Part shown: positions 3,035-32,318 of the stretch, one piece after another
Position numbering within the stretch: position 1 is the first letter of the stretch
How the letters are laid out: each line of letters opens with the position of its first letter
NCBI RefSeq assembly: GCF_024347395.1
Contig: NZ_AP025472.1
Location: 1,564,465 to 1,604,464 of the forward strand
Direction of reading: 5' to 3'
Length of the DNA stretch: 40,000 nucleotides
Origin: Vibrio cortegadensis
GTDB lineage: Bacteria; Pseudomonadota; Gammaproteobacteria; Enterobacterales; Vibrionaceae
Notes under the pieces: generated by a model
The model's input: only the letters and a program-made list of their open reading frames with translations
What the model was told of the DNA's origin: nothing
Databases searched by the model: none
Made by a program: the position numbers and the translations under genes

Positions 3035-3841
3035 ATGAACAACGATATCGAAGAAGATTTCAATTTAGGCGGTAGTGTAGAACGCGCGCTTTCAGGTAAG
3101 TATGATTTGAATGTGGGAGCGGTGCTTCAAGAGGCATGGAAATACACAATCAGACACTTTCTCTCATTTTCACCAGCGATAATTATTCTACTGTTAGTAC
3201 AGATCGGTATTTTTTATATCGCGTTAAAACTGCAACTAGGCGAACCAGGCATGATATTGGATGCCATTCAGAACCCGGAATTATTTAATGCGGCGATTGT
3301 CGAGTCTATTTTTGTGGCTAACTTTAGCTACGAAGTGGTCAGCGCCCCGATTTATGCGGGGGTCAGTCTAATGGCAATGAGTCATATTGCTGGCTTACAA
3401 ACTAAGCCTCGCCATATATCCAAAGGCTTACAATTTACAATTCCAGTGATTCTAGCAACACTGTTTAGCCTGATGTTGCAAGGTGTCGCAGGAATGATTA
3501 TCCCATTTCTTTCAATGTACTTATCCATTGCATTTAGTAACTCTATCCTGTTGATTTGTGAGAAACGTGTTTCTCCGATGCAGTCTTTGTTGCTTTCTCT
3601 ACGTGCAGTGAATAAAAAAATCCTACAAGTTACCGCACTCTACATGGTAGTGATGATGATGTTTGTCATTGCAGCAATGTTTTATGGCATTGGATTGATC
3701 TTCGTTCTTCCTTTCTTTTTCCACGTTAAAGGCATTATTTATCGTGAAATGTTTGGTATTAAGCTAAAAATAGTCGCTTCAGATCGACCGAACAAAAACG
3801 ACGATGATAACGACAACGACCCTCAGGTGTTTAATGCGTAA
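3035..3841 (+). CDS. Multi-pass inner-membrane protein of unknown function with an acidic Asp/Asn tail
   Basis: 268-aa ORF with several long hydrophobic segments. Its stop overlaps the next gene start by 8 nt (ATGCGTAA). I do not recognise a family. Confidence 0.6.
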   Translation: MNNDIEEDFNLGGSVERALSGKYDLNVGAVLQEAWKYTIRHFLSFSPAIIILLLVQIGIFYIALKLQLGEPGMILDAIQNPELFNAAIVESIFVANFSYEVVSAPIYAGVSLMAMSHIAGLQTKPRHISKGLQFTIPVILATLFSLMLQGVAGMIIPFLSMYLSIAFSNSILLICEKRVSPMQSLLLSLRAVNKKILQVTALYMVVMMMFVIAAMFYGIGLIFVLPFFFHVKGIIYREMFGIKLKIVASDRPNKNDDDNDNDPQVFNA

Positions 3842-17577: not shown

Positions 17578-19311
17578 ATGGACGCTTGCGATAAAGAACA
17601 ACTGCAAGAAGTGCTTTTAGAACTCAAGCACAGTCATGAAAGGGAAAAAAGACTTTCCGACGAAAATAGAGCGATTCTAGACGCTATTTCAGCCATGAGT
17701 GGTGCAGACAACCGCCAACAAATCTTTTTAGGTTTACAAACGGCATTAAGCAAATACATCGATGTCGAAGATTTTATTGTCATATCGCGTTCAAACGACA
17801 CTCATGCATTTGAAACATTACTGACCACAAATGCCGCTTTCAGAAATATTGCTTGGAACAAAGACAAAAAATTCACTCGCGTACTTAATGGCGAGTGTAT
17901 TATCTTATTTGAGCCCGCAACTCTAGATGAATTTATATCTCTTAACTGTGTCATTCGAGAAGAGGTCAAATCTGTTTTAATGACCGGTATTAATGCTGAA
18001 GTTACGCAGTCCGTTCTGCTTTTGATCGGAAGAAGAAAAGGGCAGTTCAGTTTAGAAGATAAACAAACACTCATTCGATTTAGCCCATTGATAGAACGAG
18101 CTATTATCGATATTGAGAATAAAGAAAAGTTAAATAATCTAGTAGAAGCAAGAACTCGAGCTCTAACGAAAGCTCAACAAGACGCGATCAAAGCAAACAA
18201 TGCCAAGTCCGAGTTTTTGGCAATGATGAGCCACGAAATTAGAACACCACTAAACTCAGTTCTCGGCATGCTTGATATTATGAAGCAGACTCAAATTAAT
18301 GCTCAACAGCTAGGAATTCTAACTCAAATGGAATCCTCCGCAGAACTTCTCCTCGCTATTATCAGTGACATTCTTGATGTTTCCAAGATTGAATCCGGCA
18401 GTTTTTCTCTTAATAAACAATGGATTAATATTAATGACACTGTCACTTTTGTAATTAGTCAATTACAGAATATAGCAGACAAAAAAGGGTTGAAGCTTAG
18501 TACATCTAATCTTATTGATACGAAAAAACTACACTTGATTGATTCAACTAGATTATCTCAAATCCTATTCAACATCGTAGGTAATGCCATCAAGTTTACT
18601 CCTGACGGCTCTGTCGATATATCATTAAACATCAACGAGAATAATCAACTCATCATAAAAGTCATCGATACAGGTATTGGTATTCAACAGAAAAAACTAC
18701 CATTCCTGTTCAACCCATTCCATCAAGCAGACAGCTCGATTACCCGTCGATTTGGTGGAACAGGATTAGGTTTAGCGATTACTAAGCATTTGGTTCAGCT
18801 GATGGATGGAAAAATCTCCGTTGAAAGCAAGTTGGGCAAAGGAAGTAAATTCACGATTTCAATTCCGGTTCTTTCTAAGTGTAATGACGAGTCTCAAGAA
18901 GATAACAACACACCAATAGAGAGCCCAAGTCTTAATATTCTCGTAGTCGAAGATACTCACACAAACCAAATGGTGATAAAGCTTCTGTTAAGCAGATTAG
19001 GTCACACTGTAACAATCGCAAGTAATGGGCTAGAAGCCTACGAGTATATTCAAAAGCACCATCAACACTTAGATCTGGTATTTATGGACATTTCAATGCC
19101 AGTGATGGACGGCTTGGCTGCAACGAAAGTAATTCGCTCGCAAGGGATTACCATTCCGATCATTGCGCTGACAGCCCACGCGATGGAAAACGATAAACAT
19201 GAATGTTTCAGAGTTGGTATGAATGATTTTATAACGAAGCCTGTAAGATCATCAGACATAGAAGCAGTTCTTCATCAATTAACAGCAAAGCTACCTCAAG
19301 AACATAATTAG
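17578..19311 (+). CDS. Cytoplasmic hybrid sensor histidine kinase / response regulator
   Basis: 577 aa with H-box FLAMMSHEIRTPLN, N/G boxes (VGNAIKFT, DTGIGI, GGTGLGLAI) and a C-terminal receiver (ILVVEDTHTNQ...DLVFMDISMP). No TM segments. Confidence 0.88.
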   Translation: MDACDKEQLQEVLLELKHSHEREKRLSDENRAILDAISAMSGADNRQQIFLGLQTALSKYIDVEDFIVISRSNDTHAFETLLTTNAAFRNIAWNKDKKFTRVLNGECIILFEPATLDEFISLNCVIREEVKSVLMTGINAEVTQSVLLLIGRRKGQFSLEDKQTLIRFSPLIERAIIDIENKEKLNNLVEARTRALTKAQQDAIKANNAKSEFLAMMSHEIRTPLNSVLGMLDIMKQTQINAQQLGILTQMESSAELLLAIISDILDVSKIESGSFSLNKQWININDTVTFVISQLQNIADKKGLKLSTSNLIDTKKLHLIDSTRLSQILFNIVGNAIKFTPDGSVDISLNINENNQLIIKVIDTGIGIQQKKLPFLFNPFHQADSSITRRFGGTGLGLAITKHLVQLMDGKISVESKLGKGSKFTISIPVLSKCNDESQEDNNTPIESPSLNILVVEDTHTNQMVIKLLLSRLGHTVTIASNGLEAYEYIQKHHQHLDLVFMDISMPVMDGLAATKVIRSQGITIPIIALTAHAMENDKHECFRVGMNDFITKPVRSSDIEAVLHQLTAKLPQEHN

Positions 19312-19356: not shown

Positions 19357-19410
19357 CCTAATAACTATATTCAGAATCGAAGATTAAGATATATAGTTAT
19401 TAGGTATTTT
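19357..19410 (+). terminator. Long AT-rich hairpin downstream of the kinase gene (terminator-like)
   Basis: 14-bp perfect inverted repeat CCTAATAACTATAT / ATATAGTTATTAGG (19357-19370 and 19391-19404) with a 20-nt loop, followed by TATTTT. Confidence 0.5.
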
Positions 19411-19511
19411 ATGGTAAATAGCGTTATTGTTAAATAGCATTTCAAGGTGAGAAGCGCAGAGACGCAAGGATAGTGGAAGTGTTTAAGTTAGATGGCACAT
19501 CAACAATTGCA

Positions 19512-19539
19512 ATTTAACATAATACACATAATACGCACC
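19512..19539 (-). other. dif: dif-like XerC/XerD recombination site A (11-6-11)
   Basis: The minus strand reads GGTGCGTATTA-TGTGTA-TTATGTTAAAT. The XerD arm equals the Vibrio/E. coli-type TTATGTTAAAT arm as I remember it. The site lies exactly at the boundary between core genes and phage DNA. Confidence 0.8.
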
Positions 19540-19891
19540 GAGATAGCGGAGATGATTCGGCCTCAAACGCTGCTAAACTTAGTACCAATGTCCCACAAGC
19601 CATTGAAATTCCAGACAATCCAAGACCTTCAAACTTTTTTGAAATTTGACTCCACAACGCCTGTTCCTCTGTTGTCTTTGCACGATCTGCTGCTAGACCA
19701 ATTAGAACCTTTTCTTTATCTTCGCCAATTTGATCAGCGATAAAAAGTGCTTTGTTTTCCTTAAGATAGCTTCGACCTTTCCTGATTTCAGTAATCATTT
19801 GCGGACTAAGTCCAAGTTCATGAGCAATTTGCTTATCTTGAACAAACTTCATGTGCTCTTTGTATGCATCTAGCAGATTCGAAGTGTACAT
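19514..19891 (-). CDS. Prophage HTH regulator (repressor-like), transcribed opposite to the phage operon
   Basis: 125 aa with an HTH-like segment DKQIAHELGLSPQMITEIRKGR. Its position and orientation resemble rstR of CTX-type and repressors of VGJ-type vibriophages. The last ~9 codons and the stop lie inside dif-like site A. Confidence 0.65.
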   Translation of the reverse strand: MYTSNLLDAYKEHMKFVQDKQIAHELGLSPQMITEIRKGRSYLKENKALFIADQIGEDKEKVLIGLAADRAKTTEEQALWSQISKKFEGLGLSGISMACGTLVLSLAAFEAESSPLSRCVLCVLC

Positions 19892-19929
19892 TTTGAAAAT
19901 CCTCTTCCTGTCTTATCCCTTTATTGTAG

Positions 19930-20005
19930 CCGATTACTACAGTAAATCTTGTATTTACAGCACAGAGATTCCTGTATTAAATGACTACAGAAATTACTGT
20001 ATTAC
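19930..20005. promoter_or_regulatory. Divergent promoter/operator region of the filamentous prophage, with TACAG/CTGTA repeats
   Basis: TACAG occurs at 19937, 19955 and 19985; CTGTA occurs at 19971 and 19996. They form inverted pairs (CTGTA-N9-TACAG, TACAG-N6-CTGTA) and direct repeats ACTACAG(T/A)AAT, between the repressor gene and the forward operon. Confidence 0.5.
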
Positions 20006-20126
20006 ACCCATTCGGTTTAAAGATTACTTCTCTCTAGGCCGTTTGGGTTCTCTTTTGACTGCCTTGGGCGTTTAGCCCTTGAAGCTTGCGCTCTCGGTGG
20101 TCACTCAACTGTTCAAGGTGGTTGTA

Positions 20127-20489
20127 ATGGAAATTAAAGTAAACCCTCATAATTCAGAAATTAAACATTTGGTTCATGGTGATATTAAATTCGATTACTT
20201 ACCGATTTCTGGTTTTGCTATTTTTCTTACTTTTTTTGAATCGACTGTTTCCACTTACATCAATCTTCCTCTAAACCCTAAAACGCTTGATGTTGTTCCT
20301 ACTACAGATTGGCACTCTGACGGCCTCAATAGAATTCCTGCTGTTTCTTGTAATTTTGATAATGAATTTAAGGTGATTTTAGAAACACATTCGGATTACT
20401 TAGTTTTCTGTCAGTTCTTTGGTGTTGAGCCTCTTCCGCTTATCTCTGACCATTTCCATCTCTTTAATGCTAATGCGTTGGAGGCTTAA
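20127..20489 (+). CDS. Hypothetical phage protein (first gene of the forward operon)
   Basis: ATG at 20127 (MEIKVNPHN) is preceded by AAGGTGG. The stop is 2 nt before the next start. No family recognised. Confidence 0.5.
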   Translation: MEIKVNPHNSEIKHLVHGDIKFDYLPISGFAIFLTFFESTVSTYINLPLNPKTLDVVPTTDWHSDGLNRIPAVSCNFDNEFKVILETHSDYLVFCQFFGVEPLPLISDHFHLFNANALEA

Positions 20490-20491
20490 TC

Positions 20492-20731
20492 ATGGAAAAC
20501 GTAATCCTTACCCCTGCTGATATTGATGCGATTGTCGAAGGCTTAACTGTTTTAGGAATTATTGTCACACTATCAGCAATGATGTTATTTCATGTGGCTA
20601 GGTTTTCTTTTGATTGCTTCATTCGAATGAGCATCAAAGAAGATATTGAACGTTTAAAACAAGTGCGTAGTGATTTATTAGCTGAAGTTACAGTTCTTCA
20701 CACTCCTAATTCTAAATTGGATTCGGAGTAA
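20492..20731 (+). CDS. Hypothetical small membrane protein (1 TM)
   Basis: 79 aa with TM LTVLGIIVTLSAMMLFHVA and a C-terminal coiled-coil-like segment. Tightly packed in the operon. Confidence 0.5.
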   Translation: MENVILTPADIDAIVEGLTVLGIIVTLSAMMLFHVARFSFDCFIRMSIKEDIERLKQVRSDLLAEVTVLHTPNSKLDSE

Positions 20732-20734
20732 ATC

Positions 20735-20956
20735 ATGACTAGCCCTTATGCGAACGGTGAAATCTACTACGACAACGAACCTAACGTTGGTGTGAATGCC
20801 TATTTCTCATGGGGGCATCATTTCTTTGCGTGTATGTCTGACTTCCGCGCTCACGTTGAACTGTCTCAAGCTCCAAACAGCTATGAACTGATTGAAATCA
20901 CCGACGATAACTATCGTTCACTTTGTCGAATTGGAGTGTTTGCTCATGTCTGCTGA
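20735..20956 (+). CDS. Hypothetical small phage protein
   Basis: 73 aa. It overlaps the inferred Rep start by 11 nt, suggesting translational coupling. Confidence 0.45.
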   Translation: MTSPYANGEIYYDNEPNVGVNAYFSWGHHFFACMSDFRAHVELSQAPNSYELIEITDDNYRSLCRIGVFAHVC

Positions 20957-22106
20957 TAAATTCGATAAATCCATTCGAGCGGTTAAGCCTTACAAGCCAC
21001 GCGATAAGCATCAATTCAAAGTTGATCACAAAGCATTAAGTGACACTGTGACACCTGTTTTTATTGACCACTTAGCATGGTCGATGCCGATACGTTCACT
21101 TTCTTATTTGGATGGCGCTCTAGATAAAGATTATGTCCCTTACATGATGCCTGTCTTCCATCAACCGAAAGGTTTAACGGCTGAACAACAAAACGAATAC
21201 GTAAAACGTTATCAGCAAGAATTCTATTTTCGAATGAATGTGTGCTTTGAATTGTTCATGCAAAAAGAGTTTGGAATGTTCCTTTCTCCTATGCGTGGCC
21301 GTGGTCTTCATGGTTATGAGGATTCAATGACTATCTTTGACATCACCAGAACGCATGAACTTGGTTTTGTGGGAATCGGTGGTAACAACGACACCATATA
21401 CATTCAGATTAATGGTACTGGTTGCCAATACCTTTTTAATAAGACTACGCCAGCTCGTGTTCATTGGTTACTGACTGAGATTTTTGTAGTGCCTTCCCTA
21501 TCCCGCCTTGATTTGGCTGTGGATGATTTCACTGGGAATTTCGACGCTAAATACGCTGAACGCTGTTGGTATGAAAAAGCTTTTAAATCTTCGCCTGACG
21601 CTCGTCGCCAAGGTTCAATGACACCTCACGTTAAATATAACGATGGTGGTTCACTGGATGAGGAAGCCACTTTAATCGGTAGCCGTTCTTCTACTCGCTA
21701 CTGGCGTATCTATAACAAAAAGTTCGAAAGAAAAATTACTGACCCTGATGTGGTTTGGTATCGGAATGAAGTGGAGCTTAAAAAAATCTCCGTCGATTTT
21801 CTCTCTGACATATCAGCGTCGTTCGCGGGTCTTTGTGACTTCGCGGCCTCTATCGAACCGACACCACCCAAACGTCACGACACCATAAAGAAAAAAGCGA
21901 TTTTGGACATTATGGGGAAAGTGGCGTGGGCAAGAAAGCAATGCGGAAAAACCCTTTCAGAAGTTATCGACTTTTATAACGGTGACTTAGAAAAAGCGTT
22001 TGGTCACTTAGTGCCTGACAAATACAAGACAAGAACGATTGATATGCCAGACGTTCATAAATCATTGGTTCAAGCGCATCTAGGCATAATCGACGCCCCT
22101 TTTTAA
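20946..22106 (+). CDS. Rolling-circle replication initiator (Rep_trans / gene II-X, RstA/Cri-like)
   Basis: Start moved to MSADKFDKS (ATG at 20946, GGAG 10 nt upstream). Motifs LSRLDLAVDDFTG and TLIGSRSSTRYWRIYNKKFE...WYRNEVELKK match the family pattern I remember for filamentous-phage and plasmid Rep_trans proteins. Confidence 0.8.
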   Translation: MSADKFDKSIRAVKPYKPRDKHQFKVDHKALSDTVTPVFIDHLAWSMPIRSLSYLDGALDKDYVPYMMPVFHQPKGLTAEQQNEYVKRYQQEFYFRMNVCFELFMQKEFGMFLSPMRGRGLHGYEDSMTIFDITRTHELGFVGIGGNNDTIYIQINGTGCQYLFNKTTPARVHWLLTEIFVVPSLSRLDLAVDDFTGNFDAKYAERCWYEKAFKSSPDARRQGSMTPHVKYNDGGSLDEEATLIGSRSSTRYWRIYNKKFERKITDPDVVWYRNEVELKKISVDFLSDISASFAGLCDFAASIEPTPPKRHDTIKKKAILDIMGKVAWARKQCGKTLSEVIDFYNGDLEKAFGHLVPDKYKTRTIDMPDVHKSLVQAHLGIIDAPF

Positions 22107-22121
22107 TCGGAGAAACACACT

Positions 22122-22499
22122 ATGAGTACAGCAACTGCCTTTTTCGTACATGGCATTAAACACACTATCTTCAAGAACTCGGGCAATGCATCGGCTTCCA
22201 TCTACGTTGGCCGCGCATTGAAAGACTTTTCAAACGACAACATGGAAATCAAAGCGGCGGGTTACTTTGACAGTATTGAAGAATTTGAAAAGAACCGCTT
22301 TAAACATTTGGCTATTGAGGAAGTTTACGCTGAGAAAGTGATTAACAGCCGCGCTTTCGTCCCTTATCAGCAATATGAATTACGCACTGCGCCTATGCCT
22401 GATAACCCAATGCAATCGCACGTTGTTGAGATTATTCCTGTTGATGCAGAAGTTAAAAAGCACTTCATGGAATCCATGAAACAAACACCAACTAAATAA
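22122..22499 (+). CDS. Putative ssDNA-binding protein (gene V analogue), assigned by position only
   Basis: 125-aa soluble protein directly after Rep, where inoviruses place their ssDNA-binding protein. No motif-level support. Confidence 0.35.
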   Translation: MSTATAFFVHGIKHTIFKNSGNASASIYVGRALKDFSNDNMEIKAAGYFDSIEEFEKNRFKHLAIEEVYAEKVINSRAFVPYQQYELRTAPMPDNPMQSHVVEIIPVDAEVKKHFMESMKQTPTK

Positions 22500-22520
22500 A
22501 ATTCACATTGGGAGCTAATT

Positions 22521-22742
22521 ATGATTTGTGCAAAGGTTGTTTCTAACACTCTTCAAGTTATTGATTTAGCTCCCGGTGAAGCTTGCCAATTCGTGACTCT
22601 GTTACAGCAGTCTGATTTTGCAAACCCTGAAGCGTTTCTTACAAAAGAGATTGTTTTTACTTTGCTTTCTGCGGCTGCTGGCGTTTATGGATTGGTTTTT
22701 GTGATTGATATATCACTTCGTCAACTTGGTTTTAGAGGATAA
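22521..22742 (+). CDS. Small hydrophobic virion or assembly protein
   Basis: 73 aa with a C-terminal TM (IVFTLLSAAAGVYGLVFVIDISL), directly upstream of the major coat gene. Confidence 0.4.
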   Translation: MICAKVVSNTLQVIDLAPGEACQFVTLLQQSDFANPEAFLTKEIVFTLLSAAAGVYGLVFVIDISLRQLGFRG

Positions 22743-22746
22743 AACT

Positions 22747-22944
22747 ATGAAAAAACTACTTGTAGGTGTTGCACTTACTGCCGTTGCATCAACTCCAGCT
22801 TTTGCGGCTATTGATGTTTCTGCTGCGACTACAGCTATCACTACTGATGGTACTGCGGCAGTTAGCTCAATCGGTCAGGCTTTAATCGGTCTAGCTGGTG
22901 TTGCTGTTGTCTTTAAATGGGCTAAAGGTTCAATTTTCGGTTAA
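22747..22944 (+). CDS. Major coat protein (pVIII-like)
   Basis: MKKLLVGVALTAVASTPAFA/AIDVS... has a signal peptide, an acidic/neutral N-terminus, a hydrophobic core (ALIGLAGVAVVF) and a basic C-terminus (KWAKGSIFG). A GAGGA RBS lies upstream and a strong terminator follows. Confidence 0.85.
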   Translation: MKKLLVGVALTAVASTPAFAAIDVSAATTAITTDGTAAVSSIGQALIGLAGVAVVFKWAKGSIFG

Positions 22945-22960
22945 ACCTTTATGTGAAATC

Positions 22961-22988
22961 GGGGGCTTCGGCTCCCTTTTTTTAGGAT
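22961..22988 (+). terminator. Intrinsic terminator after the major coat gene
   Basis: GGGGGC-TTCG-GCTCCC hairpin (UUCG tetraloop, one G-U pair) followed by TTTTTTT. Confidence 0.8.
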
Positions 22989-22994
22989 TTAATT

Positions 22995-23078
22995 ATGCCT
23001 CTTTATCTAACACCTCAAGACCTTATTTGGGGCTTCGTTCTTCTCCTCCTTTGGGATGCCTTTCGTCGTTTATTTTAA
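22995..23078 (+). CDS. 27-aa hydrophobic peptide (pVII/pIX-like minor coat candidate; not in the ORF track)
   Basis: My translation is MPLYLTPQDLIWGFVLLLLWDAFRRLF. It is preceded by the same 13-nt GGATTTAATTATG initiation region as the pIII-like gene. Confidence 0.4.
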   Translation: MPLYLTPQDLIWGFVLLLLWDAFRRLF

Positions 23079-23090
23079 TTGGATTTAATT

Positions 23091-24578
23091 ATGAGTATTA
23101 AACAAAGCATTACTTTTTTATTTTTATTCTTGGGTGTTTCGTTTAATGCTTCGGCATATTTTGAAAATTATAAGGGTGAAAAGTTTGATTCTTTAGATAC
23201 GGCCTTAACATCATATTTAAATTCTTGTGAGGCTAATGTTTATACCGGGCGGGCTTCTTATATTAAATTCATTGATGGCAGGGTTTCTTCTTCAACTTCT
23301 CTTTACTTAAGGTATTACACTTATACAGATTCAAATTGTTCCAATCTTTATACTGGGGCTAACAATTGGACAACTATTTCTTTCACAAATAATGAATGTC
23401 CTGTTGGTGAAACGTTCAATCAAACTACTGGCGAGTGTGAATCACCTCCTGTATGTACAGATGATCAAGTTTTAGATCCAAACACTGGTGAGTGTGCAGA
23501 GATTCCCTTTTGCAAACGTCAATCTACTTTAGAAGCTATTTTTTCTGAGGAACAAGCTTGTGCGGCTTCAAAAGGTATTTTTAATCATAGCTGTGATGAA
23601 TTCCTTGATAAGTTAGATATGAAATGTACACAGCCTACTGAGTGTGTCATTGGTATGCCAAACTATCCTGATTGTTTGGGTGATTTAAACCCTACAGACC
23701 CACTTACACCGCCTGACGATTTTAATCCTGACCCTTCGAACCCTTCTACTCCTGCGCCTCCATCATTTGATAAAGATGAACCCGATTCAGTTACGCCAGA
23801 TGACACCACTGATAAGGCTGTATTAACGGCTTTACAAAATTTGAATCGTGATAATAACAAAGCTTTTACAGCATTAAATACAGATTTGAATACTGGCTTT
23901 ACCTCGTTAGATAACAAACTTAAAACACTGAATAAATCCAATGATGCAATTGGTAAAGCTATCAAAGAGCAATCACAACAAGATGTTGCCATTCATAACG
24001 CTCAAACCTTATTAATGACTCAACAAACTGGTGCCATTATGAATGGTACTACACAGGTAGTTCAGGGGCTTAATACTCAAACAACACAGCTAAAAGGTTC
24101 TCTTGACGGTGTTGCTCAAGCTATTGGCAATTTACCGTCACAACTAAATGGTGATGTTACTAGTCAAGGTTGTTCTTCTTTTAATTGTACTGGTAGTGCT
24201 CCCAGTTGTTTTCTAGCTAAAGAACGCTGGAGAGTTAATTGTGATGAATTAAAGAATGAAGAATCTGCAACTGAGCAAGGTGCTTTGTTGACTGATACTT
24301 TTCAGGCGTTAACTGAATCAGCTACTGATGAACATGGTGCTTATACCAGTGTATTTACTGATGCCAATGGTTCTGTTGATGAAATGCTTGATGCTTATAC
24401 GTCTGATAATGGTTTCAGCTTTTCTTCTGGTTGTCCTTCACCTCGCACGTATGATTTAAAAATTGCGGTTTGGTCAATTGATTACACTCCTTTTTGTACA
24501 CTAGCTCTCGTATTTCGTGGGCTTCTTTTAGCTTCCGCCTCAATAGCTTCTTTTTTAATGGTAGCTAAATTCATGTAA
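23091..24578 (+). CDS. Minor coat / host-adsorption protein (pIII-like)
   Basis: It has a signal peptide (MSIKQSITFLFLFLGVSFNASA), a Cys-rich N-terminal region, a Pro/Asp-rich linker (DPLTPPDDFNPDPSNPSTPAPPSFD) and a C-terminal membrane anchor. This is the standard pIII architecture and position. Confidence 0.7.
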   Translation: MSIKQSITFLFLFLGVSFNASAYFENYKGEKFDSLDTALTSYLNSCEANVYTGRASYIKFIDGRVSSSTSLYLRYYTYTDSNCSNLYTGANNWTTISFTNNECPVGETFNQTTGECESPPVCTDDQVLDPNTGECAEIPFCKRQSTLEAIFSEEQACAASKGIFNHSCDEFLDKLDMKCTQPTECVIGMPNYPDCLGDLNPTDPLTPPDDFNPDPSNPSTPAPPSFDKDEPDSVTPDDTTDKAVLTALQNLNRDNNKAFTALNTDLNTGFTSLDNKLKTLNKSNDAIGKAIKEQSQQDVAIHNAQTLLMTQQTGAIMNGTTQVVQGLNTQTTQLKGSLDGVAQAIGNLPSQLNGDVTSQGCSSFNCTGSAPSCFLAKERWRVNCDELKNEESATEQGALLTDTFQALTESATDEHGAYTSVFTDANGSVDEMLDAYTSDNGFSFSSGCPSPRTYDLKIAVWSIDYTPFCTLALVFRGLLLASASIASFLMVAKFM

Positions 24579-24603
24579 TAAAAATAACTCATAGGTGATT
24601 TTT

Positions 24604-24984
24604 ATGGGATTCGTATATGGTGCCCTTTCTCTTGTTTTTACTTGGTTACGCAGTGCAATGCCTTGGCTTCTCGGTGCTGTCGGTGCTTCATTTTCTAACT
24701 GGATTGTAAGCGCGGGGTTTGGTGTCGTTGTCTTCTCTGGCTTTAATATTTTGACTAGTCGCCTCATTGGTACGGCTGTCAACTCGCTGAACGGCCTTGG
24801 TGATATTGGTGGGTTTGGTGCTGATATTGTTATGCTTCTCGGCTATATGTGGCTAGATAAAGCTCTTAACCTTGTTATTTCAACGGGTGCTTTTTTAATG
24901 GCGATTAAAGGAGTTCGTCAAGGTATTGCTATGCGTCAAGCTTGGTGGAAACCAGGTCAGAAAACTGGAGGAATGGAAGGTTGA
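24604..24984 (+). CDS. pVI-like minor coat membrane protein
   Basis: ~126-aa very hydrophobic protein between the pIII-like and Zot-like genes (an alternative GTG start lies at 24595). Confidence 0.6.
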   Translation: MGFVYGALSLVFTWLRSAMPWLLGAVGASFSNWIVSAGFGVVVFSGFNILTSRLIGTAVNSLNGLGDIGGFGADIVMLLGYMWLDKALNLVISTGAFLMAIKGVRQGIAMRQAWWKPGQKTGGMEG

Positions 24985-26312
24985 TTTATTTAAGAACTGG
25001 ATTGCCAGGGGCGTCTAAAACTCTTAACTCTTTACGTGAAATTGTGCTTTCTCACGATTCGGGGCGTGAGTATTACTATACAAACATCAAATTACTTATG
25101 TTGGATATTGATGTGGCCTGCTCGTTTTCTGGTTGGTATTACGGCTGGTATTTTCCAAACTTAAAAGACAAGGCTAGTATTCGTAAATTATCTAAGATAA
25201 TGAAACCAATTCACGATGATGGTGAATTTATCACTCTAAATGATGTTCCTTGGCTTCGCTCTCAATATGATAGCCACAATCATTTTGAGACTTGGCTTTA
25301 CTGGGTTCGTCGTGTTTATCCTAAGAAGAAACTTGAGAAGCTAGAATCTATTCTTGATGCTGCTCCTGAAGATACACAAGATAAGTTTGATTTAGTTCGA
25401 CCTCTTAATCTTGATTTTAGAAACTTTCCAGACCCAAATGACTGGCCTACTTTACCTAAGCGTTCAGTCATTCTGGTTGATGAGGTTCAACAATTCTTTC
25501 CACCTCGTGGTGTTGGTTCTCGCGTACCAAAGGCTATAGCAGCCCTTGAGACTCATCGACATGGTGGTTATGACCTTCATTTTGTCACACAAGACAGAAC
25601 CCTTTGTGATGCTAATTTACGTAAATTAGTTGGTCGCCATGTTCATTATTTCAATGCTCTTGGTGGTAAAAAGGTAACTCGCAAAGAAGCACCTAAATGT
25701 TTTGATCCTAATGATTATCATCAGTCTCAAACTGCTTCCAAAAAGATGATTAGCCATGATAAAAAGTTCTATGGTGTTTATTGGTCTGCTGAAATACATA
25801 CCCATAAGTTCAAATTTCCATTCATGGGCTTTGTTGCTATTTTCTTTTTATGTTTGATCCTTTATTCCGCTTATTCTCTATCATCTCAATTATTTGGTGG
25901 TTCAGACTCCAGTTCTCCAGCTGCGCCAACTCAACCAACGCCAATACAAACTGATTCACCTGACATAACAGAAAATCCTGTTGCGGATTTTGTTGATGAG
26001 TTATTAACTGATGTTTATATATCAGGCTCTGTTGTAGAACAGTTCTCTGATGATGTTGTTTACCACTATACATTTGTACGAAGTTCTGACGGTGCTGTTT
26101 TCTATCCCGAAGCAATGGAATTAACACTTGATCCATTAACGCCATGTTTGGCGAATATTAGAATTGGTGAATTGATACGGCCTGTTACTTGTAATCCGTT
26201 TTATGTTCGTGATTCATGGAAAGAAGAAGATATTGAAGATTCAGAAGATGGACAAGCAATTGCCAGTGCTGAGAGTTCAGAGAAATACAAACCCAATATT
26301 AAACTATTCTAA
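24981..26312 (+). CDS. zot: Zot-like assembly ATPase (pI homologue)
   Basis: Likely TTG start at 24981 (TTGA overlap with the upstream stop, GGAGGAATGGAAGG upstream). Similar to CTX-phage Zot as I remember it: GLPGASKT versus GAPGSYKT, VILVDEVQQFFPPR versus FLFIDECGRIWPPR, and ETHRHGGYDLHFVTQ versus DMHRHHGWDICLTT. It has a central TM and a C-terminal periplasmic domain. Confidence 0.85.
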   Translation: MIYLRTGLPGASKTLNSLREIVLSHDSGREYYYTNIKLLMLDIDVACSFSGWYYGWYFPNLKDKASIRKLSKIMKPIHDDGEFITLNDVPWLRSQYDSHNHFETWLYWVRRVYPKKKLEKLESILDAAPEDTQDKFDLVRPLNLDFRNFPDPNDWPTLPKRSVILVDEVQQFFPPRGVGSRVPKAIAALETHRHGGYDLHFVTQDRTLCDANLRKLVGRHVHYFNALGGKKVTRKEAPKCFDPNDYHQSQTASKKMISHDKKFYGVYWSAEIHTHKFKFPFMGFVAIFFLCLILYSAYSLSSQLFGGSDSSSPAAPTQPTPIQTDSPDITENPVADFVDELLTDVYISGSVVEQFSDDVVYHYTFVRSSDGAVFYPEAMELTLDPLTPCLANIRIGELIRPVTCNPFYVRDSWKEEDIEDSEDGQAIASAESSEKYKPNIKLF

Positions 26313-26720
26313 TTGCGCCCAGAAGCGCACCCAATGAACCTACCTACAAATGCGGATCAGCCCCGCAGGGATAAGCAAAGCACGTAGTGCAAGCGAAGCA
26401 CCAAGCCGCCCGACTTTGTTAACTGTGCCGTATGTCTAATCGGCGCGGTTAGCTTCACTATCCTTTGATCGTCCCACTCCCCACACCCTGCCAGAATGCT
26501 TTTAGTCTTTTAAAGGCTTGCGAGTGTCGAGCATGTCTTAATGATTTTTGTATTGGTTCGCGTGCGTGAGCAAAGGGATGGGAAGAGCGGAGCGCCGCCC
26601 TGCTCACGCCAACCCCCGTCATGTATTACGGGGGTACTATCCACGGAACTTTCAACCTTCCCCGACTATTCTCAAGTGTAACGCGCCAGTGTTTGAGCGT
26701 TAGCGAGTCTATATTACAAG
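26313..26720. other. ORF-free, G+C-richer structured intergenic segment (candidate inovirus origin / packaging / att region)
   Basis: No ORF of 60 aa or more on either strand. There are tandem hairpins: GCGTGAGCA (26564-26572) pairs with TGCTCACGC (26601-26609), and CCCCCGT (26613-26619) pairs with ACGGGGG (26628-26634). Confidence 0.5.
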
Positions 26721-26723
26721 TAT

Positions 26724-26746
26724 AAAAAAACCGCCCAATTGGGCGG
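26724..26746 (-). terminator. Intrinsic terminator of the exported-protein gene
   Basis: Perfect 16-nt palindrome CCGCCCAATTGGGCGG (26731-26746), followed on the minus strand by a 7-nt T-run. Confidence 0.8.
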
Positions 26747-26885
26747 CCGACTTCAAGCAAAGGTGTTCAAATTCTTAGAGTTCATAAACTGAACAAGCTT
26801 TACATTACAGAGTAATTTTGGCTCTCTCAATTCTCAATATAAATTATTAATACTCTCTCACATTTCATTGTAATTGATATGCTTC

Positions 26886-27488
26886 TTAGTAATTTTGAGC
26901 TCTTAATTGTGCAATTTTTCTTGCATACTCAGCATCAATTCTGTGAATTTCACGATCCCTTTCACGCTGTAGTCTTTTTATCTCTCGATTAATGTTCACG
27001 TAATTATCAGCCTGGTACTGGATATCACACCTGCTACTTACATCATTAATCGCTTTGTTCGAACCTGACAAATTGAATGATGTATTCATCTCACGCCTTC
27101 CAAAGACATGCACTTGCACATAAGCAGTTGTACCTTGCTTTAATTCATAAAGGATCCGTTTATCTACATTTCTAATCGCTCCTCCTTTATAGGAGGATGT
27201 GAACATATTTCCTTTCAAGTTATACACTCGGCCATTATCAATCTTAATTCTAAAATCGACACTTTGATTTGGTGTCGCAATATTATCTTTACCTGAAAAA
27301 GTTAGAAACAAATCTTTATCATAACGCCCTGAATCACAACGAAAACCCAATGAATTACCATGTGCATAGGTTGTACGCTCATACACCTGCTTGTTATTCA
27401 TATTATCAAAACGCATAGTTTCATTAAACGATGCATTACATACACTTGAAAACATACAAATGGTGAACCCCAAACGAAACCATTTCAT
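26886..27488 (-). CDS. Exported protein with a C-terminal charged coiled coil, function unknown
   Basis: 200 aa with signal peptide MKWFRLGFTICMFSSVCNA/SF, a probable beta-rich body with two Cys, and the tail INREIKRLQRERDREIHRIDAEYARKIAQLRAQNY. It is divergent from the rexA-like gene and very AT-rich. Confidence 0.6.
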   Translation of the reverse strand: MKWFRLGFTICMFSSVCNASFNETMRFDNMNNKQVYERTTYAHGNSLGFRCDSGRYDKDLFLTFSGKDNIATPNQSVDFRIKIDNGRVYNLKGNMFTSSYKGGAIRNVDKRILYELKQGTTAYVQVHVFGRREMNTSFNLSGSNKAINDVSSRCDIQYQADNYVNINREIKRLQRERDREIHRIDAEYARKIAQLRAQNY

Positions 27489-27742
27489 TAATTAAACCTC
27501 CTTACAGTTAAATTTGAGCAACTGATTGCACTATAAGATTTTCTAGGTTGCTCTTATGAGATTTATCTCAAAAATATACAAATAGGCCCAATGTCAACCT
27601 TAGTAAAAGAACAGCACTATATTCACACTGATTTTGTTAACTTTTTTTGTACAGCTCTATTATTATTGAATGACATATCTAATGTTGAGGAGTACCATGC
27701 GAATAAATAAAATTAATAATTAATGACTTAAAGGTTGTATAC

Positions 27743-28687
27743 ATGCGAGTTAGTTACTTTGGCTACCATTTGAACAATATAGACAATCAACACAAAACAT
27801 TGTTTGATATTCGCCCTTTTTTGCATTCTTTTTGTGCTTTAGATGCTGTTCAGTATAAAAATAATTTCACACACTCAGGCGAGCATTTGTATCTTTTTCC
27901 CGTTCATGGTGATGTATTTATGTTCGTAATGACACGTAGCAGTGACATTATCCGAAAAGTAAACACTAGAGAAATTACGGTAGAACAAATTCGTGATCTT
28001 TTAGGCGAAGATAACCAACTGGGGTTTGCTTCATATGTCCTTATCACTGAAAATTGCTTTGGATTCGGTTCAACTTTACTTGCACCTAAATCTGATGTTT
28101 TTATAGAATTTATTAACACAATCTTCATATCTCTTGGTATTGTTAATTGGAAATTAATTCCTTTTGCTTTAACTCATCAAGCTACACGTGCAGAAGCCAT
28201 GGAAATGTCGATTATAGGAACCACTGTGATCGAAATTTCGAAGGAAAATACTTTTGCAGAAGATTTCTTGAGACAATTAGGGATGACTACTGAGGAAACT
28301 CATAATTTAGAAGGCTTTGAATTGACATTTAAGCCTCGGTCAAGACAAAACATTAAGCCCGTTATTACAAACGTATTACAGCAGGTACCCGATGATGGCA
28401 TTACTAAACTGATTATCAAAGCTAAAAATGAAGTATCAGGGCACATGACCGATTTGTACCTAGTTAACTCTGGAATCTTACAAGATGATGTTAATAACTC
28501 TAGTGATCTGGCCATTGCCAGAAACATGGTAACTAAAAAAACCAACAACACCCTATTAACTGAAAAACTTGAGGAGTTTACACAAAATGAAGACCTCTCG
28601 GAAAGCACTATTGACGCTATTTCTCGTTATAATCACATCACTGCCTGGACCGATTTTGTATCTACTGTACAAACTGTTAGTGAATAA
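27743..28687 (+). CDS. rexA: RexA-like abortive-infection sensor protein
   Basis: 314 aa. Several blocks resemble lambda RexA as I remember it: HLYLFPVHGDVFMFVMT versus YLYIHKIDGKTFLFTKT, LGFASYVLITENCFGFG versus LGFPSFLFVEGDTIGFA, FELTFKPRSRQNIKPV versus LDIVIKPKFKRDIKKV, and IIKAKNEVSGHMTDLYL versus SLRAKDEAGDILTEHYL. Confidence 0.7.
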   Translation: MRVSYFGYHLNNIDNQHKTLFDIRPFLHSFCALDAVQYKNNFTHSGEHLYLFPVHGDVFMFVMTRSSDIIRKVNTREITVEQIRDLLGEDNQLGFASYVLITENCFGFGSTLLAPKSDVFIEFINTIFISLGIVNWKLIPFALTHQATRAEAMEMSIIGTTVIEISKENTFAEDFLRQLGMTTEETHNLEGFELTFKPRSRQNIKPVITNVLQQVPDDGITKLIIKAKNEVSGHMTDLYLVNSGILQDDVNNSSDLAIARNMVTKKTNNTLLTEKLEEFTQNEDLSESTIDAISRYNHITAWTDFVSTVQTVSE

Positions 28688-29051
28688 GGTATTAATTGAA
28701 CCTATTGTTTTAGTCGAACAGAAAACAAATATTGCCATTATATTAGCGACATTTGCGTTTACGATGATGGGTTTTTTAGCGGCTGTTATTACTATTTTCT
28801 TTTCGTTCGCTAAATCGAGAACGTTCAAGAAATTCAGCCGTGAAGGTCGTTTTGGCGTATTTTTTACTACTTATTATTACTGTATTATTTCACTCGCTCT
28901 AACCATGTGCTTTGCTTTGGTTACTTTAGGTAAAGGCACCTCTATATGGGCTATGCAAACAGCACTGATTACGACAGTAAATAGCTTATTTCAAATCTGC
29001 TTGATTACTTTTACTATCATTAATTTGAGTAAAAGGGCGATGAAGGAATAG
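28587..29051 (+). CDS. rexB: RexB-like four-TM membrane protein
   Basis: 154 aa from the ATG at 28587 (GAGGAG at 28571-28576). It has four hydrophobic helices, and the loop and tail resemble lambda RexB from memory (FAKSRTFKKFSREGRF versus IGSRTRRLAKIREYGY; FQICLITFTIINLSKR versus IHICILVFQLYNLTRE). It overlaps the rexA-like 3' end by 101 nt in another frame. Confidence 0.65.
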   Translation: MKTSRKALLTLFLVIITSLPGPILYLLYKLLVNKVLIEPIVLVEQKTNIAIILATFAFTMMGFLAAVITIFFSFAKSRTFKKFSREGRFGVFFTTYYYCIISLALTMCFALVTLGKGTSIWAMQTALITTVNSLFQICLITFTIINLSKRAMKE

Positions 29052-29055
29052 ATCT

Positions 29056-29074
29056 AGGCTCCTTTCTGGAGCCT
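29056..29074. terminator. Hairpin between convergent rexB-like and xafT-like genes
   Basis: AGGCTCC-TTTCT-GGAGCCT has a 7-bp stem. There is no strong T-run, so confidence is moderate to low. Confidence 0.4.
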
Positions 29075-29079
29075 TCGTA

Positions 29080-29451
29080 CTAACTGTTCATTATTAACGC
29101 AATACTACGAGCATATTTAAGCAACTTTGACATTGTTTTTACATCTAATTCTGCTTGAATTTCTAACAAAGCAATTCCAGTTAAAATCTCTTGTGGGGTC
29201 ACTAATTGGCCTGTCGGTAGTTCCAGTTTATCATTGCGCATGATGAATAGATTCCAATTATCTGATGGGGCAAGCTCTTTACCTTTATACATTTTCATTA
29301 ATCGCCGACACTCTGGCGGAATAGCTTTTCCTGCGTCCCAAAGCTTGACCGTCCTCACACTTTTAAAACATAGTTCAGCCGTCTTTTCTATACTAATTCC
29401 ACAAACTAATTCACGAAAAATATAATTTTTAGTCATTTCGTGGTACTTCAT
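29080..29451 (-). CDS. HTH + DUF3653-like protein (XafT-like candidate Xer activation factor), copy 1
   Basis: Likely ATG at 29451 (MKYHEMTKNY). It has an HTH-like segment TAELCFKSVRTVKLWDAGKAIPPECRRLM, then W..F......L.LPTGQLVTPQEI. It is a paralogue of the gene at 29779 and starts ~50 bp from dif-like site B. Confidence 0.6.
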   Translation of the reverse strand: MKYHEMTKNYIFRELVCGISIEKTAELCFKSVRTVKLWDAGKAIPPECRRLMKMYKGKELAPSDNWNLFIMRNDKLELPTGQLVTPQEILTGIALLEIQAELDVKTMSKLLKYARSIALIMNS

Positions 29452-29503
29452 TGATAACTCTCTCAAATGAGAAAGATATTATAAAAAGTGCGTATGCAAC
29501 TTG

Positions 29504-29532
29504 ATTTACCATAAGGGCGCATAATACGCACC
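29504..29532 (-). other. dif-like site B with a 7-nt spacer (attP/dif hybrid junction)
   Basis: The plus strand reads ATTTACCATAA-GGGCGCA-TAATACGCACC. The XerC arm is identical to site A. The XerD-type arm has one mismatch (C for A). The orientation matches site A. Confidence 0.7.
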
Positions 29533-29778
29533 GAGGGATTGTTTATTAACATTTGGTAAAACATTGATTAACGCATACATAAGTAATTGATACTTATGCC
29601 GAATTTATATTTAAACCCTATTTAATAACGTTTTGAAATACTTATGATTACTGGCGCTTGCTTTACGTAATCACAGCAAAAAGTCTCTTTTTCCACTGAG
29701 CGACATTTTGTCACGTGAATTGTTAAAAAATCATAAGAAAAAAATATTTCGTCAGTTATTTTATTTGTGAGGCAAATC

Positions 29779-30201
29779 ATGTTTTATGAGTCATTTAAAG
29801 TTCTGTTTTGGCGTGAGTTTACCTCTCACCGCCAAGGTGCTGAGTTTTTCCATGTGAAGATTGTCACAGTTCGACGTTGGCTAGACGGCAAAATCCCTGT
29901 CAATCCGATGGCTGAAAAACTCTTAATCATCAAATCACTTGGTTACTTGCCTAATGATATGCGTTGGCGTGGCTTTCGTATCTGTGAAAAACGTGCGGTG
30001 CTTCTTACCCCAACTGGACGCGAGTTCAGCCCTAAAGAATTAGAAAGCTTTGTGTTTTGGCGTGATGAACATCGACAATTGGTTGAGCAACATGGTCATG
30101 TGGATTACCCAAAGGTTTACCCTGCAAAAGAAAATGTGTTGCCGTTTCGTGGCGGTCGCCGAATGCAAGCCGCCCCGTGGATACCGACTAAATTTAAATA
30201 G
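29779..30201 (+). CDS. HTH + DUF3653-like protein (XafT-like), copy 2
   Basis: ATG at 29779 (MFYESFKVLFW, GAGG 6 nt upstream). It has AEFFHVKIVTVRRWLDGKIPVNPMAEKLLI, then MRWRGFRICEKRAVLLTPTGREFSPKELE. It is divergent from copy 1 across site B. Confidence 0.6.
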   Translation: MFYESFKVLFWREFTSHRQGAEFFHVKIVTVRRWLDGKIPVNPMAEKLLIIKSLGYLPNDMRWRGFRICEKRAVLLTPTGREFSPKELESFVFWRDEHRQLVEQHGHVDYPKVYPAKENVLPFRGGRRMQAAPWIPTKFK

Positions 30202-30238: not shown

Positions 30239-31216
30239 TCAGAAAGGAATATCATCATCAAAATCCGAAGAAGGTGGCGGTGGCGGCACTTGTACTGTTC
30301 GCTTTTCAATGGTAATAAACGCAGAATTCCAATTTTCAGGCGTGTAAACTTTAAGCGATTTATTCTCGTCAAAAATCTCTTCTGATATGGTTAACTCAAA
30401 TGAGTTATTGTACCAAGACAAATCGCTTCCAAAAGGAAATTCATACTCTTTATAGCCATATGTTTTCAAAATTTCACCAAGTTCTTGAATATTTTGAAAA
30501 TAAACCCGATGACCTATTCCTAGCTTAGTTCTCAACTCACTAAATGCTGGGTGGCTGTTCATCAGGATATTTTGAATTGCGTCACTTCCTCTATTTTTCT
30601 CTTCGCTTAAAAAAGTAACCAACGTTTTTAAAGTAGCTGAGGTTCTATTTATCTCATCAATTAAATTAACTTCTTTTCGTCGAGAGCTCTCACTCAAAAG
30701 GCTCTGAAAAAGTCCTGCCCACTGCTCTTTCAAATGATTAGTGATATCAACTACAGATTCAAATGCTTGTATTTGATTATTGTTAGGAAGTGAATGTATC
30801 TCATCGAGGAATTGAAAAATTCTATTATCATCTACTGATGCATACTTGATGCTGTCATTATCTTTATTTACTTTATATGTTTGATATTCAGCGTATACCG
30901 TTTTTTCAATAAAAATATAAAGCTGCTTTCCTTTTTTAACAGCCGTAGTTAACTCCACATTTGATACGGAGTGACTGCTATTCCCATGTTGAGATTGGGA
31001 GCCAAATCGACCGCCAATGACACCAACGACAATATCGCAAATTTCAATTTCTTTATAGCAATACTCTTCTAAACGTTTTTCTGAACCATAAGGAATATTG
31101 CCTTTTTCATTCAAAACCGGGTCATACCCTTGCTCTTTAATGAATCGCTCTAAATCATTTCTTATATATTTCAAGTCATAATAAGTCGAGCTTACAAAAA
31201 CACGGGGCTTTGCCAT
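30239..31216 (-). CDS. DUF4062 (TIR/deoxyribosyltransferase-like) N-terminal domain protein with an SSB-type C-terminal tail
   Basis: Likely start MAKPRVFVSSTYYDLKYIRNDLERFI (ATG at 31216; the ORF is open to 31252). The pattern VFVSST..DL...R..L......GY.PV..E.......E.C..EI..CD..VGVIG.R.G...S....E...A...GK matches DUF4062 as I remember it. The C-terminus verified from DNA is TVQVPPPPPSSDFDDDIPF*. Confidence 0.7.
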   Translation of the reverse strand: MAKPRVFVSSTYYDLKYIRNDLERFIKEQGYDPVLNEKGNIPYGSEKRLEEYCYKEIEICDIVVGVIGGRFGSQSQHGNSSHSVSNVELTTAVKKGKQLYIFIEKTVYAEYQTYKVNKDNDSIKYASVDDNRIFQFLDEIHSLPNNNQIQAFESVVDITNHLKEQWAGLFQSLLSESSRRKEVNLIDEINRTSATLKTLVTFLSEEKNRGSDAIQNILMNSHPAFSELRTKLGIGHRVYFQNIQELGEILKTYGYKEYEFPFGSDLSWYNNSFELTISEEIFDENKSLKVYTPENWNSAFITIEKRTVQVPPPPPSSDFDDDIPF

Positions 31217-31296
31217 GTTAAACCTATAATGTAAAAATTGATAATTAATCATATCACTTTAATCTCATACATAAGAATGATGACTCATACAAATAA

Positions 31297-31862: not shown

Positions 31863-32318
31863 CTATGCGAGTTTGACGCCTTGCATGGCATCGCTGAATG
31901 AGTAATGGCGACCCACTTCCATGATTGACATAGAGTGCAGCACTTTAGCCAATAGTTGGTCATCGTTTAGGTTGATGGATTCATTGACGCCAACACCGAC
32001 CTGTTTTGCTACGAACTGTGCGTAATTCTTCGTATCATTTTCTACTGGCGGTGCGAATCGGTTAATGATTTCGTTTAGATTGTCGAGTCCATGCGCCCGT
32101 TGATAGGTTCGCAAGGTTTTAGCGCCCGCCCGAAAGCCATATTTATGATGGGTATAGCTTTCAAATTCAGCATCACGGGAAAAGCTTGTTTCCCCTTGCC
32201 AATCGTTGCCTTTTCGAATGTTCAGCGGGTTATTGTTGCGAATTCCGCGGATGGTTTTTTTTGTCATATAGAGTGCAAAGCCCCCAAAGAAAATGAAGAT
32301 AATCAGATATAAACGCAT
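31863..32318 (-). CDS. Membrane-anchored phage protein with an RNNNPLNIR motif (putative muralytic/structural)
   Basis: 151 aa with an N-terminal TM and the motif GIRNNNPLNIRKGNDWQGE, which recurs in phage virion-associated or cell-wall-active proteins as I recall. Function not certain. Confidence 0.45.
   Translation of the reverse strand: MRLYLIIFIFFGGFALYMTKKTIRGIRNNNPLNIRKGNDWQGETSFSRDAEFESYTHHKYGFRAGAKTLRTYQRAHGLDNLNEIINRFAPPVENDTKNYAQFVAKQVGVGVNESINLNDDQLLAKVLHSMSIMEVGRHYSFSDAMQGVKLA

Follow-up and report, generated by a model that had tools for sequence, protein, structure and literature searches.

The 40,000-nucleotide window of the Vibrio cortegadensis genome analyzed here (contig NZ_AP025472.1, positions 1,564,465 to 1,604,464) passes from conserved core genes into phage-like DNA, and at the transition lies a 28-bp sequence that resembles dif, the site acted upon by the recombinases XerC and XerD. 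The question raised by this locus is whether the sequence (site 1, positions 19512-19539) is the dimer-resolution site of the chromosome and, if it is, what has been inserted beside it and by which route. The evidence set out below makes it very probable that site 1 is dif1 of a Vibrio chromosome 1, and that two phages lacking an integrase have been inserted there one after the other via XerCD, to give an array of XerCD-hijacking elements (IMEXs).

The dif-like site and its chromosomal setting

The minus strand at 19512-19539 reads GGTGCGTATTA-TGTGTA-TTATGTTAAAT, a perfect 11-6-11 dif layout in which the XerD arm occupies 19512-19522, the spacer 19523-19528 and the XerC arm 19529-19539. A sequence-only reading of the window had described a canonical dif-like site of 28 bp at this position, and the exact sequence was found there. 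The full 28-mer, allowing up to three mismatches, occurs once in the window against 0.00 expected (none of 100 shuffled sequences gave a match), and a degenerate dif pattern likewise occurs once, against 0.01 expected by shuffling. No other site in the window combines a 6-bp spacer with a perfect XerD arm. That reading had also compared the arms with known dif sites, and the comparison agrees with the published sequences: the XerD arm is identical to that of Escherichia coli K12 dif (GGTGCGCATAATGTATATTATGTTAAAT, PMC2731167) and to those of V. cholerae dif1, dif2 and difG (PMC3089051 Table I), while two differences, as claimed, were counted between the XerC arm and AGTGCGCATTA, a form common in many Vibrio loci. 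From the V. cholerae dif1 XerC arm (AGTGCGTATTA, as printed in PMC3089051) it differs at one position. The plus strand of site 1 matches the published Vibrio dif motif ATTTAACATAA(N)6TAATRCGHASY (PMC12715192).

The complete V. cholerae dif1 is AGTGCGTATTA TGTATG TTATGTTAAAT (PMC3089051), and the common form of dif1 in Vibrio is AGTGCGCATTA TGTATA TTATGTTAAAT. Site 1 has in common with the dif1 sites of this genus its layout, an identical XerD arm, a near-identical XerC arm, its position after a hybrid kinase ortholog and its role as a landing pad for IMEXs, but its XerC arm begins with G, and its spacer is TGTGTA where that of a sister strain and of many species is TGTATA. Further dif1 spacers seen among other vibrios are TATGTG, TGTACG and TCATTG.

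Site 1 begins 200 bp past the stop codon of the last core gene (17578-19311, plus strand), the distance that had been estimated from the sequence alone. This gene encodes a hybrid sensor histidine kinase/response regulator (Pfam HisKA, HATPase_c and Response_reg) and ends a core block that includes pot, fnr, the ccoNOQP/ccoGHIS genes and a FIST gene. Two draft assemblies encoding an identical kinase were available for strain comparison. One (GCA_030410015.1) is 100% identical to the window across 13 kb, and the other (GCA_013114135.1, locus L002) diverges by about 0.3% (99.7% identity) over 12 kb of the core. At the same position L002 carries AGTGCGTATTA TGTATA TTATGTTAAAT, and its similarity to the window ends exactly at 19539/19540, which is the outer edge of the XerC arm, so the boundary between core and mobile DNA falls precisely where the sequence-only reading had drawn it. 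Both draft contigs stop at, or shortly past, the dif site, which is where repeated dif or phage DNA would be expected to interrupt an assembly. The kinase search gave only these two contigs ending near dif, and no empty site.

The chromosomal position of dif1 is conserved in related species. Orthologs of the kinase with 55-60% identity lie upstream of dif1 in six of the loci compared (L004, L005, L053, L057, L058 and L060). In V. sagamiensis the ortholog (55% identity) is followed, about 170 bp on, by the end of the contig inside the XerD arm of dif. Between the V. floridensis ortholog (58% identity) and AGTGCGCATTA TGTATA TTATGTTAAAT there is a satellite array. In Vibrio contigs from the IMG/VR database (57-60% identity) the order is a terminator hairpin, a conserved block (see later) and dif1. 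In more than 25 IMG/VR Vibrio loci, as in V. sagamiensis and V. floridensis, dif1 follows an orthologous kinase gene and a conserved flank. The cco-fnr-pot neighborhood of V. cholerae chromosome 1, which the sequence-only reading had placed within tens of kb of the CTX/TLC/dif1 locus, was compared via other Vibrio species only.

A second site and the proposed order of insertion

A second dif-like site, missing from the sequence-only reading, is present on the minus strand at 29504-29532. It reads GGTGCGTATTA TGCGCCC TTATGGTAAAT, a 29-bp hybrid att (site 2) with a 7-bp spacer and an attP-type XerD arm; the XerC arm is the same as that of site 1, and the XerD arm has one change. A 16-nt exact direct repeat at 19527-19542 and 29520-29535, the copies 9,993 bp apart, is composed of two spacer bases, the XerC arm and three further bases. 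The DNA between the two sites (19540-29503, plus strand) was assigned to a Vf33/VGJ-type filamentous prophage ('CTX-I' inovirus) by this repeat, by alignment with Vf33 and by an inovirus gene set. Including one att site, the unit is 9,993 bp. Sites of 29 bp equivalent to site 2 were found in about 30 IMG/VR loci.

In Vf33 the attP is AGTGCGCATTA TATCTGC TTATGTTGAAT, also of 29 bp, and lies between homologs of the repressor gene and of the 128-aa terminal gene of the window prophage; site 2 is positionally homologous to it. When the ends of the prophage were joined in silico, a single 531-nt alignment to Vf33 ran straight across the att site, showing 19540-29503 to be one circularly permuted Vf33-like genome opened at attP. 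The junction of the circularized inovirus is predicted to read, on the plus strand, (29503)-TTATGGTAAAT/GGGCGCA/TAATACGCACC-(19540). The prophage has no integrase and is bracketed by direct dif-like sites, one of them the regenerated dif; it has a single 29-bp attP with a 7-bp spacer, whose homology to the dif spacer is found only beside the XerC arm, and its joined ends recreate a contiguous phage attP region. VGJphi similarly uses a single 29-bp attP and integrates as double-stranded DNA with XerC catalysis only, because its spacer and that of dif have no homology on the XerD side (PMC4246890). The window inovirus shares with VGJphi, Vf33 and f237 a single double-stranded attP of this length between the repressor and the 128-aa terminal gene, spacer homology confined to the XerC side, an integration that regenerates dif, a core of Rep_trans, DUF1293, pIII and Zot genes, and variable cargo between zot and the terminal gene. 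It differs from them in its attP spacer (TGCGCCC) and in its larger genome of 9,993 bp, the latter because of the RexA/RexB cargo, and its nucleotide identity to Vf33 is about 67% around attP and little elsewhere.

Beyond site 2, from 29533 and extending past the window end at 40000 (minus strand), gene content and relatives indicate a tailless double-jelly-roll (DJR) prophage of the PM2/NO16-like, 'dif-type DJR' kind, at least 10.5 kb of which is inside the window. The claim that the DNA to the right of site 1 is phage-like and integrase-less held for both the 9,993-bp inovirus and this second prophage, as no integrase or recombinase domain was detected with Pfam or PHROGs in any open reading frame (ORF) of at least 180 aa between 19.5 and 40 kb. 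At 235 bp from site 2 is a gene for a P15/XafT homolog (29767-30201, plus strand), the 144-aa product of which belongs to DUF3653 (Pfam PF12375, 1.4e-20) and is 64% identical to NO16 fNo16_0007. XafT, also a DUF3653 protein, is encoded by TLCphi and binds XerD, which it activates without need of FtsK (PMC6744903). By analogy, XerD activation, which has been demonstrated for TLCphi XafT alone, is a putative function of the window homolog.

When IMG/VR was scanned with the DUF3653 protein, 38 loci were found. Most of those extending upstream show the order dif, Vf33-like inovirus, 29-bp site, about 245 bp, and XafT homolog, and those continuing downstream of the XafT homolog have a variable segment and then tailless-phage genes. 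At L044 the XafT homolog and the tailless phage come immediately after a 28-bp dif, and several IMG/VR contigs begin at the XafT gene and run on into the tailless phage, so the DUF3653 gene belongs to the latter. In phage NO16 (L052, MH730557.1) the homolog is 250 bp from GGTGCGCATTA TGTATA ATGTGGTAAAC (3280-3307), an attP of TLC design: its XerC arm is good, its spacer is the one common in dif1 and its XerD arm is degenerate. The far junction of such a DJR prophage at L048 also has a degenerate XerD arm. We infer that the window prophage is a TLC-type IMEX that integrated first. Like TLCphi it has no integrase and carries a DUF3653 gene beside the att site on the XerC-arm side, and the attP of its relative NO16 has the good XerC arm, dif spacer and degenerate XerD arm of the TLC type; unlike TLCphi, the carrier is a tailless double-stranded DNA phage and not a filamentous satellite. 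The NO16 gene at 3558-3989, whose product is 64% identical to the window protein, is labeled 'S-adenosylhomocysteine hydrolase' in the record, an annotation that looks wrong given the XafT-family homology and the TLC-type attP 250 bp away.

Binding and recombination of site 1 by XerC/XerD under FtsK control are predicted from these sequences, and for the array we infer the following order of insertion and recombinase at each step. The NO16/'dif-type DJR' tailless phage would have integrated first via a TLC-type pathway; in the attP of phages of this kind a good XerC arm and a dif-like spacer are combined with a degenerate XerD arm, and their XafT-family protein would activate XerD without FtsK. 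This step would have left a regenerated dif beside the kinase gene, with the other DJR junction expected beyond base 40000, and the XerC arm of site 2 would be the contribution of the tailless prophage. The Vf33/VGJ-type filamentous phage would then have entered the regenerated dif as double-stranded DNA, through its 29-bp attP with the 7-bp spacer TGCGCCC. The spacers TGTGTA and TGCGCCC share only TG, on the XerC side, and with homology limited to these two bases beside the XerC arm only XerC could exchange strands; the Holliday junction would be resolved by replication. Site 2 would thereby consist of the XerC arm of the previous site, the phage spacer and the phage XerD arm, and site 1 of the phage XerC arm, the host spacer and the host XerD arm, making it the regenerated dif with which the array ends on the XerD side. 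Canonical again, it would be usable for dimer resolution and for further insertions. The first spacer bases agree in related loci too (TATGTG with TATCTGC; TGTATA with TGGGCGC or TGCGACG), with L075 as the lone exception, where TATGTG and TGCGACG share only T. Successive IMEX insertions seem to rewrite both the spacer of dif1 and its XerC arm. The sequence-only reading had proposed a dif site with an array of XerCD-hijacking elements, and this is supported in the form of a two-member array at a dif1 position shared by other Vibrio.

Several observations weigh against this account. The FtsK-orienting polar sequence (KOPS, GGGNAGGG) is absent from the 40-kb window, and in the left flank, where a positive GC skew would be expected, the skew is slightly below zero (raw value, -0.039; about -0.02 to -0.05 once gene orientation is separated out). 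The flank measured is 19.5 kb of mostly membrane-protein genes, and the right flank is entirely prophage. Since gene orientation and membrane-protein composition dominate the skew, GC skew, AT skew and KOPS/Chi counts in the window were rejected as unusable for locating the terminus, and placing site 1 there relies on synteny, not skew. The spacer of site 1, TGTGTA (19523-19528), also does not match the TGTATA of the sister strain (L002, 11945-11950). The far junction of the DJR prophage and its P16 repressor lie past base 40000, so that its status as an IMEX is judged from one junction and from relatives, and the inovirus carries a distant XafT homolog, which is compatible with a XerD-activated route.

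Could site 1 owe its appearance to something other than a chromosomal dif? A chance AT-rich match at the end of an island inserted by another mechanism has only the low G+C of the region in its favor, and can practically be dismissed with no match in 100 shuffles and a site of the same geometry recurring in dozens of genomes. Site 1 might otherwise be merely a phage-borne att copy, with the real dimer-resolution site at another locus or at the far end of the array, outside the window. The skew within the window is unsupportive of a terminus, and the model preferred here itself makes the XerC arm of site 1 phage-derived. Nevertheless, the XerD arm and flank of site 1 are chromosomal and conserved across species at the exact position, the far junctions of relatives have degenerate XerD arms (L048; NO16 attP), and site 1 is alone in the window in its 6-bp spacer and perfect XerD arm, making an att copy very unlikely.

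Other doubts concern the route of the filamentous phage. Had it entered by the CTX route, as a folded single-stranded hairpin attP and not as VGJ-type double-stranded DNA, it would still be an inovirus at dif, and its class does bear the name 'CTX-I' in PMC12715192. CTX-type pairs are two inverted dif-like sites some 90-150 bp apart in the phage genome, but the 9,993-bp unit has a single dif-like site without a nearby inverted partner for a hairpin, and no second one was found within 19540-29503. That single site is 29 bp with a 7-bp spacer, the same as the attP of VGJ and Vf33, and the intact arms at both junctions would permit excision, whereas CTX integration is irreversible (PMC4246890). 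A CTX-type hairpin attP was rejected for this inovirus for want of a second inverted site, and entry by that route is improbable. A different possibility is that the phage's own XafT-like protein, the 128-aa product of its terminal gene (29080-29466, minus strand; 67% identity to the Vf33 ORF beside attP), drives XerD-first recombination of the TLC type in place of an XerC-only exchange. This protein shows distant homology to the DUF3653 protein encoded at 29767-30201 (E 5e-4, with 27% identity across 91 aa), the terminal-gene rule of PMC12715192 fits its gene, and such a gene is called XafT there; according to PMC9226527, XafT assists the synapsis of imperfect sites. The protein has no Pfam DUF3653 match at E <= 0.01, however, its attP has a nearly canonical XerD arm unlike that of the TLC attP, and the two spacers, one of 6 bp and one of 7 bp, have no homology on the XerD side (..GTA versus ..CCC), which makes strand exchange by XerD less favorable. 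XerD-first recombination is, on balance, unlikely, and XerC-only exchange of double-stranded DNA is the preferred route for the inovirus.

That filamentous vibriophages occupy dif has been known since 2002. The use of XerCD was proposed for NO16-like tailless phages in 2023 (PMC9966536), and for the tailless prophages at dif the matter was left undecided by a survey published in 2024 (PMC11630473). The same architecture was described in December 2025 from 688 Vibrio genomes, together with tandem IMEX arrays that include an inovirus and DJR phage pair, and hypervariable defense-gene regions in the zot-xafT and p15-lysis gene intervals (PMC12715192). The window array is a further example of this described arrangement and, given that catalog, ordinary in kind; it leaves current understanding unchanged. 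It does fix the position and sequence of dif1 in the source Vibrio, it gives exact borders for two small non-tailed prophages of the sort usually merged or missed by automated tools, and at a single site it stacks Xer-exploiting elements of two mechanistic classes. A complete RexAB is present in the filamentous phage, so the dif array serves as a place where phage-defense cargo can be exchanged. The flank motif beside dif1 (see later) is the only item that might lead to something new.

Gene content of the two prophages

Searches of both prophages against the phage collection with megablast gave short or partial matches only, so neither is a known phage genome. The inovirus begins with an RstR-like phage repressor gene (19514-19891, minus strand), the 3' end of which reaches into dif; its product has DUF3693 and a helix-turn-helix (HTH) domain (Pfam PF12472, 2.8e-13) and is 44% identical to its Vf33 counterpart. 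The following genes are on the plus strand and encode a Rep_trans rolling-circle replication initiator (20892-22106; Pfam PF02486, 1.3e-17) and a DUF1293 inovirus protein (22122-22499; Pfam PF06950, 8.9e-45), after which come a small coat-like ORF and a pIII-like ORF (23079-24578). The latter has no Pfam match and is a presumed minor coat/receptor-binding protein, as judged by its position, size and weak tblastn matches to the equivalent ORF of related prophages. A small DUF2523 membrane protein occupies the pVI position (24595-24984; Pfam PF10734, 1.7e-07) and is followed by the Zot-family assembly ATPase, pI (24942-26312; Pfam PF05707, 2.5e-13).

Between zot and the terminal xafT-like gene, the cargo includes a complete abortive-infection pair (27743-29051, plus strand) of RexA (27743-28687; Pfam RexA 1.7e-58, PADLOC 3.1e-62) and RexB (28569-29051; PADLOC 9.6e-24). 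The variable region of the inovirus also has a 200-aa ORF on the minus strand (26886-27488), which has no match in Pfam or PADLOC; its predicted product has a signal-peptide-like N-terminus and a coiled-coil C-terminus.

In the tailless prophage, the XafT-family gene beside the att site is accompanied by genes for a double-jelly-roll capsid and a packaging ATPase. The genes that follow the P15/XafT homolog are on the minus strand. The lysin, a lytic transglycosylase/endolysin (31863-32318; PHROG 873, 1.3e-53), is separated by genes for structural proteins from that for the PM2-type double-jelly-roll capsid protein P2 (35487-36329; Pfam P2_N 4.1e-49, P2_C 1.6e-38), beyond which are the genome-packaging ATPase (36974-37699; PHROG 2666, 1e-51, with weak matches to Pfam DUF87/TrwB) and a rolling-circle replication protein of the Phage_GPA type (38846-39955; Pfam PF05840, 1.8e-58). 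The cargo slot between P15 and the lysin is filled by a DUF4062 protein (30239-31252; Pfam PF13271, 1.4e-18) of 337 aa with a proline-rich C-terminus. It has no PADLOC match and may be an uncharacterized defense or accessory gene.

The prophage resembles NO16 ('Asemoviridae') and other dif-type DJR elements in having a P15/XafT homolog at one terminus (64% identity to that of NO16), a variable region, a lysin, the P2 capsid, a packaging ATPase and a rolling-circle Rep, and in lying at dif in tandem with an inovirus, as in a V. alginolyticus example (PMC12715192 Fig. 6a). It differs from the dif-type DJR elements in having a DUF4062 protein as cargo, and from NO16 in that the capsid and most other proteins are too diverged to be matched by tblastn at 1e-3. 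The nearest relatives are prophages of V. cyclitrophicus, with about 81% identity over 14% of the region. A curated V. cyclitrophicus prophage (PQ189348) was considered as a guide to the junctions and set aside, as its borders in the deposited record are free of dif-like sites and its first ORF does not encode a DUF3653 protein. Exact-protein look-ups with the GPA rep and the XafT-like protein gave no record of a longer contig that would include the far end.

The conserved block beside dif1

The kinase gene is followed by a terminator-like hairpin and a T-tract (19357-19404, plus strand; RNA fold -19.5 kcal/mol, z -3.7). In the alignment, the sequence of the stem varies among species and the pairing is preserved. 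Directly after it the sequence reads TATTTTATGGTAAATAGCGTTATTGTTAAAT, and cross-Vibrio alignment identified a conserved block here (19405-19435, plus strand) containing two XerD-arm-like motifs, TTATGGTAAAT and TTATTGTTAAAT, both inverted relative to dif. Together with the bases that precede it, the first motif forms a pseudo-dif at 19392-19419, TATAGTTATTA GGTATT TTATGGTAAAT, in which the XerC-arm half is the 3' half of the terminator hairpin. Across lineages the block takes the form TATTTTATGGTAAATA-N4-TTATGTTTAAT, at 19392-19435 in the window, 20466-20509 in L004 (V. floridensis), 11738-11780 in L005 and 485-528 in L036/L042, as well as in 25 further loci (L053-L075). It is near-invariant in lineages that were not selected for having it, and the surrounding intergenic DNA varies. 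In those 25 further loci it lies on the XerD side of dif1 at a distance of 50-102 bp, mostly 83-85 bp. An Rfam scan of the whole window gave no matches, so the block is not a known RNA, and no description of it was found in the literature searched; such a pair of XerD-arm-like motifs, in inverted orientation some 85 bp away from dif1, looks undescribed.

One tentative interpretation, which is possible but still doubtful, is that the block is a functional second Xer target, being both a XerD-binding element of the host at the terminus and an alternative attachment site for CTX-type hairpin satellites. The attachment-site part of this proposal is suggested by V. floridensis, where a tandem satellite sits at TATTA|GG. 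Alternatively, the block may be a conserved terminator with some other signal. The V. floridensis array (L004, 11745-20478) is a tandem pair of 4,362-bp Rep_trans/HTH satellites, inserted exactly at TATTA|GG of the pseudo-dif and not at dif. Two ORFs of this locus, of 144 aa (beside dif) and 128 aa (at the satellite end), were considered as counterparts of window ORFs of the same lengths and discarded, neither being homologous. At 156 bp into the element, each satellite copy carries AATGCGTATTA GGCACA TTATGTTACGG, a dif-like site in inverted orientation, and so possesses an inverted dif-like pair; its inverted pair of half-sites is reminiscent of the forked-hairpin attP of CTX, and in a predicted single-stranded DNA fold the inverted site pairs with the half-site at the junction (z -3.0).

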